DNA from: Paramecium tetraurelia
Taxonomy: Eukaryota
Direction of reading: 5' to 3'
NCBI GenBank assembly: GCA_000165425.1
Contig: CT868119.1
Location: 186,001 to 250,000 of the forward strand
DNA length: 64,000 bases
Positions 2,469 through 38,525 of this stretch are shown here, piece after piece. Below the pieces are notes generated by a model, which saw only the letters and a program-made list of their open reading frames with translations, was not told the DNA's origin and ran no database searches. Position numbers and translations under genes: made by a program. The first letter of the stretch is position 1, and each line of letters begins with the position of its first letter.

Positions 2469-2618
2469 NNNNNNNNNNNNNNNNNNNNNNNNNNNNNNNN
2501 NNNNNNNNNNNNNNNNNNNNNNNNNNNNNNNNNNNNNNNNNNNNNNNNNNNNNNNNNNNNNNNNNNNNNNNNNNNNNNNNNNNNNNNNNNNNNNNNNNNN
2601 NNNNNNNNNNNNNNNNNN
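2469..2618. other. Assembly gap (150 N)
   Basis: Run of 150 N. Confidence 0.99.
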
Positions 2619-2622
2619 GAAG

Positions 2623-2737
2623 CCCAACCCCAAACCCAACCCCAACCCCAAACCCCAACCCCTATCCCAAACCCAAACCCAAACCCAAACCCAAACCCAA
2701 ACCCAAACCCAACCCCAAACCCAAACCCAAACCCAAA
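2623..2737 (+). repeat. Telomeric repeat tract (CCCAAA/CCCCAA mix), left end of a macronuclear chromosome
   Basis: Tandem C3A3 and C4A2 units right after the gap, the C-rich strand of Paramecium-type T2G4/T3G3 telomeres. Confidence 0.95.
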
Positions 2738-3163
2738 TTCAAAAGTTTTATAAATATCATTATAACTATCCCAACCATCTTCTTCTTGTACTATATCTAC
2801 TTCTCCTCTTCTTTAATAATTATTTTAACTAAAATTTTAGCCATATTTTTAAGCCTCATTTTATCCTTTCGGCTCTATCATGTTCTTTTTCATAGATTTT
2901 TCTCTATTTTATGAGAATAGTCGTTTTAATTAATCATTTCCCAACTACCCTCTGAAATTTTCCCTTTTGTTTCTGCACATGTACACTTGCTCTGATTATC
3001 TATTAGTATTATTTTATGACACCAAGTTATTTTCTACTTCCTAATTTAGCAATTCAGGGGGTTTGTTTACTATCAAATATTCCCCACTATGAATCTCAAA
3101 ACTCGATTAGAATATAATGTTGTAAAACAGAGAGAATTTCCTCATAAAGGAGAAATATAACAT
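2738..3163 (-). pseudogene. ORF truncated by telomere addition (hypothetical protein)
   Basis: Minus-strand code-6 ORF (MLYFSFMRKFSLFYNIIFQSSFEIHSGEY...RRGEVDIVQEEDGWDSYNDIYKTFE) runs into TTTGGG repeats with no TGA. Confidence 0.55.
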
Positions 3164-3255
3164 AATTTTCAATCACCATTGTTTCAACAAAAACTTTAAA
3201 TCAAAATCAATAATTACATGAATATTTCGATTATTAGTTTTTAAATATTTCATTA

Positions 3256-4928
3256 ATGATTTTTGTTTAATTGTTTTTTTTAGCCGTGAATGCCATAATG
3301 CCAATGCCTAACTCAATAATATAAGGTTATTAAACAGCCAGAATTTCTAGCATATGCTAAGTCAAATTTTTTTCAAATTAAGAATTTCCAGATCATGTAA
3401 TATAACTATTACTTCATTATCATGAATTAATAACCTAAGATGAAGATTGTGAATTTGAGGAATCTATTTAGAATACTAATATAAAAATTGAAGGAGCTCT
3501 AAAGTTTGAGATTAGTATAGAAAATTATGAGCAATTATATTGGGTTACAAGTACAAAAGAAGAAGCTTATGAATTACAAATAGATGAAAACTTAAATGTG
3601 AAGATATAGGCAAAGAATCATTGGGGTTTAGCTAGAGCTCTTGATACCGTAAATCAATTAGCAATAAATAATGAAATTTAGAATGTAATGTAAATACATA
3701 TGATATTAGTTACCAATCTAAATAAGTGATGAACCATAGTATGTTCATAGAGGAATAATGATAGACACAGCCAGAAACTATTTACCTGTAAAATTAATTA
3801 AGAGAACTATTGATGCTTTGGTAATTAATAAATTAAATGTATTGCATTGGCATATTACCGATGATGAAAGCTTTCCATTACTTCTAAGTAAATATAGTTA
3901 AATAACTAATAATTCTAAATTTTGGAAGGATGGGTTTTTTACAAAAAAAGATGTATAAGAAATTATAGAATATGCATCAATTAGAGCAGTTTAAATCATA
4001 CCTGAAATAGATACACCAGCACATGTACATTCTTGGGGAATATCTCCAGATTTATAATCAATTGTGATTACATGTGATACTAATATCAGATAATATGGTT
4101 AATTAGATCCAACTTTAGATTAAACATATGAAGTCTTAACTTCTATCTTATAAGATTTAAATGATATGTTTGATAAAGTATAATTCATTCATTTTGGTGG
4201 TGATGAAGCTAGTAATTAATGTTTTGAATAAAAACCATCAATTAAAGAATTCATGAATCAACATGGAATTTCCAATTATTTTGATCTTTAAGTTTATTAT
4301 AGAAAAAAATAAAAAGATATTTGGAAAAATTAAATTAAATCTAAAAAGAAAATTATTTATTGGTATAACAAAAATGATTAGCTTCCTGCAGATTAAGATG
4401 ACATTATTTAATGGTGGGGTCTTTCCTCTTAGCTTAGCGAAGTAAAAGGTAGGTCTAATTAATTCATACTAAGCGATTATCATCCCTTATATTTGGACAC
4501 TGGAGTTGGAAATGCTTTTGGGGATAGATATGATAGATATCAAGCCTGGAAAGATGTTTATAAATGGAGACCAAGTATTCCACGTAATTTTGAAGGAACT
4601 ATATTGGGGGGTGAAAGTCTACTTTGGGGTGAAACTAATAATTAAAATACTCACTTTTAAAAATTATTTTTAAGATCTTCAATTTTAGCTGACACGTAAA
4701 TAAAATTTATAGAATAGTCTATGGAACCCAGACTAAAAGCAAGATGAATTGTTTCCAAAATTCACAAAGAGATTGAGCGACATGGAAGATAGAATGAACA
4801 AGTATGGTTTTCCTGTCTCTCCTTTTACTCATAGTTATTGTAAAAGACAGCTAGATTTATGTTTTCCAGAGCTTTATTCAACAAAATTAAAATTGTTCTT
4901 CATGTTTGTTTTATTTTATTCAATATGA
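3256..4928 (+). CDS. Beta-N-acetylhexosaminidase (GH20) with signal peptide and hydrophobic C-terminus
   Basis: Motifs [45 protein letters not shown] (catalytic DE), [11 protein letters not shown]; two tiny introns. Confidence 0.93.
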
Positions 4929-5345: not shown

Positions 5346-5495
5346 NNNNNNNNNNNNNNNNNNNNNNNNNNNNNNNNNNNNNNNNNNNNNNNNNNNNNNN
5401 NNNNNNNNNNNNNNNNNNNNNNNNNNNNNNNNNNNNNNNNNNNNNNNNNNNNNNNNNNNNNNNNNNNNNNNNNNNNNNNNNNNNNNNNNNNNNNN
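5346..5495. other. Assembly gap (150 N placeholder)
   Basis: Run of 150 N; the gene resuming afterwards lacks over 1 kb of its 5' part relative to its paralog. Confidence 0.99.
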
Positions 5496-35559: not shown

Positions 35560-36531
35560 ATGGATTATTAAGAATTGTACGATTTGAGGAAAAAACTTGT
35601 AGACTGGAAAAAGTTTCCTAAAGAAACTCTTTGTATATTGAAATCGTTAGAACAATCTCCACTCGAATGGGAGAATGTTAATAAATCAAAAATACAAAAA
35701 ACACTATAGGCTCTTACATTAATAGATGATAATAATGATCCTCTAGTCACCACAATTAAAGCCAAAGCGTCAGCATTATAAGATCGCTTCAAAAGACTCT
35801 CCTAGGCCAAAGCTATTTAAAGAACATCATAAGAATAATAGCAGTAAGCGATTGAAGAAATTAAGATCTAAAAGTAAAGCAGTGTTTAGAGCACATAAAG
35901 CAGTAGATCGTTACCTTGTAAGGATCTTTTTGAAAATCATCGAGTACCTTATCCAGCTTATGCGGATAGGCTCAAATATTTAAAGGGAATAAATCAAATG
36001 TTTATTGCGAACATTTTCACCTTTAAAAAGGACAATGTCCTAAATGATTCTGAATATTAGACTATCAAAGAATGTGTAGAAATGATGGAAAACACCATAT
36101 ACCATAAAAGAGCAAAGGATCACACTCCTAGAAAAGCATATGAATAAGATTTGAGAATTTTAGCGGGCTTTTTAAAGAAAGACAAAAATGGTTCTCTCAC
36201 TTACAGAATCTTTACCAAAGCTTTTGATCCTGTTTCGGCAGCTTAACTAAGGTATTTATAAAATAAAGAAATTAGAGCAGCAGATTGGGTTGATGACGAA
36301 ACTAAGCAAGAATAAGCAAGAATAATTAAGGAGAAAATGGAAGCAGAATAAATCGGATTTTATAAGGATTTAAGCAAAAGAGAAATGGAAGGAATTGAAG
36401 GAAAGACATGTAAGGGATGTGGTCAAAAAAAAGTATATCTTGTGGATGAAAAATAAACACGTGCATCAGATGAACCAACAACTAAATTTTTTGAATGTTA
36501 CAATTGTGGAGATAAATTTAGAATTTGTTGA
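35560..36531 (+). CDS. Transcription elongation factor TFIIS family
   Basis: C-terminal zinc ribbon CKGC..QTRASDEPTTKFFECYNC, plus N-terminal TFIIS-like helical domain; one intron. Confidence 0.9.
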
Positions 36532-36614
36532 TTATTAACAAACATTTTATTATAGCTTTCTTGAACAGAATTTAAATTATATCTATAATTTAACTCAAAT
36601 ACAAGTTAAACATA

Positions 36615-37466
36615 TCAATCACATTGTAACCACTGCTTTCTTTTCTCCACTTCTAGCACTCCTTTTGTTAAGTATAAAGATTAGATTTCTTCTTTAGTTT
36701 TTAGTTTCTGATCCTCTTCTGGCTTCCAATAAATAAAATAATTTCTATCTTCCAAGAATTATTTCAAATTATGAAAACTTCCTGAACATGCTTTGAGAAG
36801 TAAGATCATTTTCTCAAATGGTATGTCGTACCATATGCTCAAATCATGTAAAGCATTCTAAAATTATTCCTATTTCAACCTCTATGATTATTAATAGTTA
36901 GGATTCGTGGGAAACCTTTATTCTTAATACGTAGGATTAGCACTATATAAAATATGCTTTTATAGATCAGTTAGTTAATAATAGTTTTAAGGTTAAGGTT
37001 ATACTTCTGGCTAAATTCGAATCTTTTTCTTCAATTAAGGTTCCACAGAATGTTTGATTTCCTTTTTGGTTTAGGTAATATCCTTTTTATTTTTGATTTC
37101 CTCATTGATTTTACAAATTTGTAATCCTTTTTTGTCATAAAATAAAATTCCCTCCAAACCATTATTTTTAATAAATTCTATAATTTATTTTAAATCTTCT
37201 TCTGTTAATTTCTTAATGCAATTAATATATCTAAGTTTTAATTCATCAGGTGTCTTTTTATGGCACTTTAACGATAATTACTCAAAATGTTAATAAGTTA
37301 ATTTTTCATTTAACATTATTTCCAAAATCAACAGGTCTTCATATAATGAAAATTAACTTTATTCTAAATATTAAACTATAATATATTATTAACAAACATC
37401 AATACCAATTTTCTTTTCCTTTTCTTAAGTATGTTCTGAAATTTATTGTTTTATAAATTGTAGCAT
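36615..37466 (-). CDS. RAP1/TERF2IP-like protein (Myb-like domain plus RAP1 C-terminal domain)
   Basis: N-terminal FSLYEDLLILE..HKKTPDELKLRYINCIK; C-terminal LLLKACSGSFHNLKQFLEDRNYFIYWKPEEDQKLKTKEEIQSLYLTKGVLEVEKRKQWL. Confidence 0.7.
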
Positions 37467-37496
37467 TATAATTAAAACAAATTAATAATAATTTTA

Positions 37497-38525
37497 TCAT
37501 TTTTTATTTACTTTTGGTAAATACACATTTTGATATGAAAATGTTCTCGATTATTGATTTTGCCTCTATTGTCTTGATACAGGCCTTAGAAATACATCTA
37601 ACTATCGAATGATCTTTGGGTCCCTATCTATTTACCTTGTACAATCTAAAAAGGACTTTAACAATAATGATCCTCTGCTTTTAGTCTTATTTTCATCATT
37701 TATTTATGTGCTTATCATTTTGCTAGCATTTGATACTTCATCCATTTCTTTGATTTTCTCCATCGCTTTTCTCATGCCATCTTCAAAATCTATAATTTGA
37801 TTTTTGTTAAACTTGGACTTTTGAAACATAGGAGTTTACAACTATTATAAAAGAGTGCTCCCTTTTAATTCTTTATAAACCTGAGCCCTAAGTGGAGTTC
37901 TTTATTAAGAATTTGAAGAATTTGCGTAATTAATATTTTAGTATTCCGCATCATCCTCTAAAGGTAAGAGCCTTATGAAAGAGTATTGTTTAGTTTTCTA
38001 TCTTTAAATTTAAACTCTTTGTTTTGGAATGGGCACAGCATCTGGCATGGTTTTACAAATTTATTACACATTTGATTCAACCTTGCCGTCATATTTTTCA
38101 ATAAGTCTATGCAGCTTCTGAATGTCCCTTTTAGGTTATTCTAATGTAGGACTAATTAATGGCTATTCTGTTATGCTAATATTTTGCACTGTTTTCTTTG
38201 GTGTAATTAAATATAGTAAATTTCTAAGAGCCAATAATGATCAAATGTACTTTGTTATTTTTAATTCATGTGATTATGAAATATAGCTCTACTTAATTTT
38301 TTCGTGTTGAGCGATTAACTTAGGTACAAGCTTTGACTCAATTACTTAGCCTTATTGATACTCCTCCAATTATTTAATGATTCCTCCTCCACACTCTAAA
38401 CATTCACAACTTTTATTTCTTATTAAAATTGGAAAAGTATCAGTTTACTAAGATTATCGATAAGTATGTAATTTTTTCATTTATCTATTATCTTGTAGGA
38501 GATGGTTTAAGATTCTTTTTTGCAT
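37497..38525 (-). CDS. Hypothetical protein
   Basis: Code-6 ORF MQKRILNHLLQDNRQMKKLHTY..CECLECGGG..., with tiny introns. Confidence 0.6.

Follow-up and report, generated by a model that had tools for sequence, protein, structure and literature searches.

Human RAP1 (TERF2IP), a shelterin component, is a 399-residue protein with a BRCT domain, and its RAP1 C-terminal (RCT) domain has been solved in complex with TRF2 (PDB 3K6G). Saccharomyces cerevisiae Rap1 has a BRCT domain, two Myb-type sequence-specific DNA-binding domains (1IGN, 3UKG) and a larger RCT of ~150 residues that has been solved with Sir3, Rif1 and Rif2 (PDB 3OWT, 4BJT, 4BJ5). The RCT is described as a protein-protein interaction domain (Li 2024, PMC10813129) and, for mammals and fungi, as a poorly conserved six-helix bundle in which helices 1-2 bind partners (Myler et al. 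2021, PMC8653790). According to these two accounts, RAP1 of humans and of fission yeast lacks DNA-binding activity and reaches telomeres through TRF2 or Taz1, and the partners of the yeast RCT are Sir and Rif proteins (PMC10813129, PMC8653790). Trypanosoma brucei has a protist RAP1 whose resemblance in sequence to its yeast and human counterparts is called weak (PMC10813129), and this protein, likened here by description, shows that RAP1 predates the animal-fungal lineage. Here we describe a gene in a 64,000-nucleotide stretch of the Paramecium tetraurelia genome (contig CT868119.1, positions 186,001 to 250,000, hereafter the window), the 273-residue product of which has the Myb-linker-RCT core of RAP1/TERF2IP and no recognisable BRCT domain, an interpretation that has support as far as homology is concerned.

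The telomere proteins described in ciliates, namely TEBP alpha/beta, Pot1a-Tpt1-Pat1-Pat2 and Teb1, are presented as binders of the single-stranded overhang through oligonucleotide/oligosaccharide-binding (OB) folds (PMC8653790, PMC9498494). The protein described here comes from the same organism group and presumably acts at the same chromosome ends, but it lacks an OB fold and is placed on the duplex side, in the RAP1 lineage. A full-text literature search found no paper describing a ciliate RAP1; most subscription journals and supplements lay outside the scope of this search, and an earlier mention is possible. The initial annotation of the locus, made from the sequence alone, likewise named no characterised RAP1 from Paramecium.

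The evidence for RAP1 kinship is centred on the C-terminal domain, which we identify as an RCT with high confidence. Four alignments of the protein and its relatives were used: A2 and A3 (20 members) are full length, while A4 (13 sequences) and A5 (15) contain the C-domain only. When profiles from A4 and A5 were compared with 177,635 distinct PDB sequences, RAP1 RCT chains took ranks 1-5, with E-values of 9.3e-5 to 5.2e-3. Human chain 3k6g_A was matched at E 9.3e-5 (A4) and 1.2e-4 (A5) over profile positions 9-85 of 88, human 8rd4_D at E 4.5e-4 and 8.3e-4, and the yeast structures 3owt, 3cz6 and 4bj5 at E 1.8e-3 to 5.2e-3 over the last 38-41 residues. With the full-length A2 profile the best PDB sequence was full-length human RAP1 (8rd4_D, E 1.8e-5), matched in two colinear stretches corresponding to the Myb (160-189, 8.2 bits) and the RCT (318-397).

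The Pfam family Rap1_C (PF11626) recurs across the relatives. It was matched at E ≤ 0.1 by 11 of the 20 members of A3, and these are all 11 that have a complete C-terminus; the other nine comprise eight fragments without a complete C-terminus and one protein, P0021, that is considered below. The next commonest families in A3 were generic Myb models (5 and 4 members), and all others were matched by only 1-2 members. When relatives P0028 and P0029 and the open reading frame (ORF) of the metagenome contig L002 were added, all 14 relatives whose C-terminus is complete matched Rap1_C at the same threshold. One of the 14, P0028, scored 26.2 bits and thus passed the curated gathering cut-off of 24.2 bits, which is operational and corresponds to no biological feature; P0029 scored 23.6 bits over profile positions 7-84 of 84 and the L002 protein 18.6 bits. 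The P. tetraurelia protein itself matched Rap1_C in the right register, with its C-terminal 35 residues aligned to profile positions 48-84 of 84.

The predicted fold of the C-domain also points to RAP1. An AlphaFold (AF2) model built from alignment A3 had a mean predicted local distance difference test score (pLDDT) of 73.5; a model from 5 near-identical sequences reached a mean pLDDT of 44.6 and could not be used. The score was ~90 at residues 1-113, below 50 at residues 114-156 and 165-178, and ~85 at residues 180-273, over which six helices are predicted. This six-helix bundle agrees with the description of the RCT given in PMC8653790. A Foldseek search with the model against 350,542 PDB chains placed RAP1 RCT chains at ranks 1, 2, 3, 4, 6 and 7, and chain 3k6g_B was matched with a template-modelling (TM) score of 0.76 (target-normalised), a root-mean-square deviation of 2.4 Å and a probability of 1.00. 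The C-domain model was superposable on the solved RAP1 RCTs 3k6g, 3cz6, 3owt, 4bj5 and 4bjt.

Upstream of the RCT, the model predicts a Myb fold, preceded by 25 residues that form two short helices. A Myb fold N-terminal to an RCT is the domain order of RAP1, and this bears out the N-terminal Myb-like motif pointed to in the initial annotation. Generic Pfam Myb models were matched by the protein at E 0.12-0.9, and its Myb match to yeast Rap1 was tied with matches to generic Myb domains. The Myb is followed by an extension with a motif of the type L-T-E-E-D-L-K-x-I-x-x-F-I-x-x-x-G-L-E-G, which is among the best-conserved parts of the family, and by a linker whose length differs between relatives, with 66 residues in the shortest and over 300 in the longest. 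Compared with human RAP1, the Paramecium protein has a basic linker, an extra helix and β-hairpin on its Myb and an RCT with just 14% identity to that of TERF2IP. It is also shorter and lacks the BRCT. No BRCT family (pfam16589) was found even at E ≤ 10 in a Pfam scan of the protein, and just 25 residues are available before the Myb; the earlier statement that no BRCT domain is evident holds. In P0009, a longer relative, the N-terminus is of low complexity and likewise gave no BRCT match. Fusion with the upstream ORF at 37497..38048 was considered as a source of a BRCT and rejected: no Pfam family was found in that ORF, and the Met-1 start of the Myb-RCT protein is conserved.

Relatives of the protein were found within and beyond the genus. 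Of 564 candidates from a word-indexed search of 5.8 billion protein clusters, four reached E ≤ 0.001: the identical P. tetraurelia protein (P0002), two proteins from P. pentaurelia (81% identity) and one from P. sonneborni (73% identity). In an exhaustive HMMER search of 1.84 billion representatives, a profile of 5 Paramecium sequences detected 17 proteins at E ≤ 0.001, of which 3 reached ≤ 1e-10 and 1 reached ≤ 1e-30; these 17 matched the N-terminal half, the C-terminal 80 residues or both. P0009 was matched by the Paramecium profile at E 3.5e-8, and a further search from P0009 added P0028, which is 84% identical to it, and P0029. A word-indexed search with profile A2 yielded one extra sequence. 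In an ESM Atlas look-up the whole protein reached a best value of 0.85, below the 0.9 level for a lead, and the C-domain had no usable match.

The most informative distant relative is encoded on metagenome contig L002. Translation table 11 gives no ORF of at least 100 residues on this contig, whereas table 6 gives a 593-residue protein at 2824..4605 on the plus strand, with 37 in-frame TAA/TAG codons. A Myb-type domain stands at the front of this protein and an RCT-type domain at its end, with a Q/P/M-rich linker of ~300 residues between them. BLASTP aligned it to the Paramecium protein in the same domain order, with 32% identity over 109 residues in the N-domain (E 4e-13) and 34% identity over 86 residues in the C-domain (E 7e-8). 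The two-domain plan, with a very variable linker, is thus shared with at least one further organism in which TAA/TAG are sense codons. The ORFs neighbouring the L002 relative matched no Pfam family, and loci L001, L003 and L004 are listed beside L002 for environmental relatives. Two relatives in the protein collections, P0008 (155 residues) and P0026 (225 residues), look like N-terminal fragments; they are pieces of the L002 relative, cut short under the standard code, and no other part of it is present in public protein collections. Since relatives that read TAA/TAG as glutamine are cut in standard-code collections (155 and 225 versus 593 residues), the family is under-counted there.

Collectively, these results suggest that the gene product is probably a nuclear adaptor of 273 residues, related to RAP1/TERF2IP and without a BRCT, that is recruited to duplex telomeres via a partner of its RCT. 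By analogy with human, fission-yeast and budding-yeast RAP1, the RCT would be the docking site for a partner that carries a Rap1-binding motif, short and helical; this partner could be a TRF/Taz1-like binder of duplex telomeres or a Rif/Sir-like regulator. The near-neutral Myb, which makes direct DNA binding doubtful and favours recruitment over repeat recognition, would provide a second protein contact or a weak DNA contact. The protein would then be recruited to the duplex G4T2/G3T3 repeats of macronuclear ends rather than recognising these repeats itself. No TRF2-like partner is known in Paramecium, and no search for one was made here. We infer the telomere function of the Myb-RCT protein from this analogy with RAP1 in other organisms.

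Several observations weigh against this assignment. The Rap1_C score of the protein itself lies below the curated cut-off, at 13.9 bits for the read-through form (E 0.058) and 14.1 bits for the spliced form (E 0.051). Neither a single-protein phmmer search nor a 5-sequence, Paramecium-only profile found RAP1 in the PDB. With the full-length A3 profile human RAP1 was reached only at E 1.1e-3, and 3k6g_A fell outside the list at E ≤ 0.05; the difference between A2 and A3 indicates that the full-length PDB result is alignment-sensitive. The RAP1 E-values were just 20- to 200-fold ahead of those of the best unrelated family, with influenza HA2 helices appearing from E 0.018 (A4), 0.0067 (A5) and 0.0026 (A3). 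No Foldseek match among the 350,542 PDB chains reached E ≤ 0.001 (best 0.26), and the fold match is not fully independent because AlphaFold was trained on the PDB, which includes the RAP1 RCT. At the N-terminus, the Rap1-specific Myb model PF08914 was unmatched by the protein and weakly matched by one relative only (P0028, E 0.061), and the Myb has a net charge of +1 and an isoelectric point of ~8. One review gives a BRCT for all known RAP1 homologues (PMC10813129). Finally, P0021 (257 residues) has an N-terminal Myb-plus-extension domain without a recognisable RCT. P0021 may have a different architecture or may be a mis-called gene model.

We rejected kinship with influenza HA2 as a chance helical similarity, given that only the first part of the profile was covered and that there was no fold support. 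The chance match runs through an S-G-D-F-x-x-L-x-x-[FY]-[IL]-E-x-x-D-x-x-L-W stretch of the family, and it marks the noise level of A2-A5.

The initial annotation had proposed a compact RAP1 without a BRCT domain, to be checked against Pfam models and by AlphaFold with Foldseek. Its C-terminal RAP1 match is supported by the C-domain profiles against the PDB, by Rap1_C in the relatives and by the fold, and the RAP1 kinship of the C-domain therefore stands; of the canonical RAP1 features, the BRCT was not found, and a Myb fold stands in the expected position without a match of the protein to PF08914. Rap1_C was found throughout the relatives with a complete C-terminus, and above the cut-off in P0028, but the protein's own score lay below it; RAP1 RCT chains led the fold ranking, but none reached E ≤ 0.001. 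Because the BRCT is missing, we file the protein as a BRCT-less RAP1-like variant and not as a canonical orthologue.

The main rival to a telomeric adaptor is a Myb-RCT adaptor of RAP1 ancestry that has its function elsewhere than at telomeres, in transcription or chromatin, with an RCT that recruits non-telomeric partners. The same domain evidence fits this explanation and says nothing about location, and the missing BRCT and the regulated expression suggested by the ~8- to 25-fold spread in depth between RNA samples (below) are consistent with it. Budding-yeast Rap1 acts at ribosomal-protein promoters. RAP1 homologues are moreover credited with divergent transcription roles (PMC10813129). 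On the other hand, the RCT-bearing proteins treated in the two accounts cited above are all telomere proteins (PMC10813129, PMC8653790), and our PDB searches gave no non-RAP1 family with an RCT domain. We regard the non-telomeric explanation as less likely than the telomeric one.

A second explanation is convergence, in which the C-domain would be a generic helical bundle (a UBA-like three-helix core with extra helices) bearing chance motifs in an unrelated Myb protein. UBA-like folds did match the model, over 40-49 residues, but the RAP1 RCT matches extend across the entire domain (87-88 residues), and their Z is about double that of the UBA-like folds. Sequence and fold searches independently ranked human and yeast RAP1 first, the S-G, W, E-D, K-G and R-K-x-[FWY]-L positions of the family align with the same columns of human and yeast RAP1, and one relative (P0028) lies above the curated Pfam cut-off. 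Convergence is thus very improbable, and common ancestry with the RAP1 RCT is preferred.

That the locus is a chance code-6 frame or a decaying pseudogene can be dismissed: long code-6 frames are common in AT-rich DNA, and 22 ORFs of at least 40 residues overlap 36000..38200, but this frame is conserved in three other Paramecium proteins and in distant two-domain relatives, encodes confidently predicted domains and has strand-specific poly(A) RNA coverage.

The gene lies on the minus strand as a single open frame of 283 codons under NCBI table 6, ending in TGA (Table 1). The frame contains 28 in-frame TAA/TAG codons, which table 6 reads as glutamine. Under the standard or a bacterial code it is broken 28 times, so the gene would be missing from ordinary ORF lists, as had been noticed when the locus was first flagged. 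The length of 275-285 residues given at that time fits the frame when read through; once spliced, the product has 273 residues. Both motifs then reported are present in the code-6 translation, the N-terminal one as FSLYEDLLILE ... CHKKTPDELKLRY and the C-terminal one as ACSGSF ... YWKPEEDQKL ... SLYLTKGVLEVEKRKQWL, also written ACSGSF ... YWKPEEDQKL ... LTKGVLEVEKRKQWL. P0002, a public 273-residue macronuclear protein of P. tetraurelia, is identical to the gene product except for 10 intron-encoded residues, and its public names are only 'unnamed protein product' or 'Myb-like domain-containing'. The window is macronuclear DNA of P. tetraurelia or cannot be told apart from it. The start Met-1 is kept in the orthologues and in relatives P0007, P0010 and P0020. 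A tblastn search found no second copy of the gene in the window.

Table 1. Coordinates of the Myb-RCT gene, its exons and intron and the predicted domains of its product, numbered from the first nucleotide of the window.
Feature	Position	Strand	Details
Whole coding region	36615..37466	-	ATG 37466..37464, TGA 36617..36615; 283 codons unspliced, 273 residues spliced
Exon 1	37406..37466	-	Codons 1-20 and first base of codon 21; from sequence compared with P0002
Intron, 30 nucleotides, GTA...TAG	37376..37405	-	In frame, no TGA; read-through adds 10 residues
Exon 2, including stop codon	36615..37375	-	Comparison with P0002; RNA reads without splice joints across 36620..37147
Myb/SANT-like three-helix domain (predicted)	37203..37361	-	Residues 26-78 of the 273-residue product
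N-domain extension: helix, β-hairpin, helix (predicted)	37086..37202	-	Residues 79-117; pLDDT 83-93; conserved in A2
Disordered basic linker (predicted)	36888..37085	-	Residues 118-183; net charge +4, contains KKKIR; low pLDDT
RCT (RAP1 C-terminal) six-helix domain	36624..36887	-	Residues 184-271; PDB profiles, fold match, Pfam Rap1_C

Expression was assessed from the raw reads of three stranded oligo-dT runs of one study (X20-X22). The region 36620..37147 was covered by reads in all three runs, with first mates on the plus strand. At the neighbouring plus-strand gene (36400..36531) the first mates lay on the minus strand, and this opposite orientation indicates that the Myb-RCT transcript is on the minus strand, as predicted. 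No splice joints were seen in the reads across 36620..37147. Coverage was 3'-biased and ended near 37150-37280, and 37190..37466 was not reached. Read depth at 36972..37059 was 48-53 in X21, 4-6.5 in X20 and 1.3-2 in X22, a spread of ~8- to 25-fold, whereas the depth of the neighbouring gene (36400..36443) was level across the three runs (28/38/34). This uneven depth against a level neighbour suggests that the gene is regulated rather than housekeeping, and its expression is possibly condition- or stage-dependent. Together, the frame, its conservation, the comparison with P0002 and the RNA reads confirm a real, expressed, two-exon gene that encodes a 273-residue protein.

The intron was placed at 37376..37405 because the 10 residues it would encode are absent from P0002, from the 3 orthologues and from distant relatives; its support is the annotated protein, the orthologues and the distant relatives, the RNA reads not spanning this segment. 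Judged by its sequence, the 30-nucleotide GTA...TAG segment is a typical tiny Paramecium intron. Its length is a multiple of three, and TGA does not occur in frame; the TAA TAA that it contains in frame is read as sense in code 6. Retention of such a stopless intron would yield a 283-residue protein and not a truncated one. Stopless introns with a length divisible by three are reportedly under-represented in Paramecium. Two longer GT..AG stretches in the Q/P-rich middle of the gene were considered as introns and rejected, as the reads across 36620..37147 contain no joints and P0002 keeps the residues.

Within the window, the gene converges with a neighbour at 35560..36531 on the plus strand, a code-6 ORF of 323 residues in which a TFIIS zinc ribbon (PF01096, E 4.3e-13) and, weakly, a TFIIS central domain were recognised. 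This TFIIS-type neighbour is expressed in all three RNA runs, and its stop lies 84 nucleotides from the stop of the RAP1-like gene. The upstream minus-strand ORF rejected above as a BRCT source encodes 183 residues under code 6, stops only 30 nucleotides short of the ATG from which the RAP1-like gene starts, and has RNA reads over its 3' end. Runs of N are found at 2469..2618 and 5346..5495, and directly after the first of these the telomeric repeats of Paramecium (plus strand, CCCAAA/CCCCAA) extend for ~115 bp, at ~2623..2737. A search for the telomeric pattern gave 16 matches against 0.08 expected. The telomeric repeats beside an N gap indicate that the window spans joined scaffolds, with a macronuclear chromosome end ~34 kb from the gene.

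If the assignment to RAP1 is right, ciliates may keep a minimal RAP1 without a BRCT, in which the RCT would bridge a binder of duplex repeats to the rest of the cap at the very numerous macronuclear ends, perhaps with a part in de novo telomere addition after programmed chromosome fragmentation. The ancestral core of RAP1 would then be the Myb and the RCT, and the BRCT would be dispensable. We put this wider scenario forward tentatively and regard it as rather doubtful. Telomeres and telomerase were discovered in ciliates, and a Myb-RCT protein offers a concrete, testable entry to the duplex side of ciliate telomeres. The BRCT and Myb are given as the most conserved parts of RAP1 (Myler et al. 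2021, PMC8653790); the Paramecium family would show that it can instead be the RCT that is kept best. The family also exposes a blind spot of the databases, in that protein collections count too few members of families whose organisms have reassigned stop codons.
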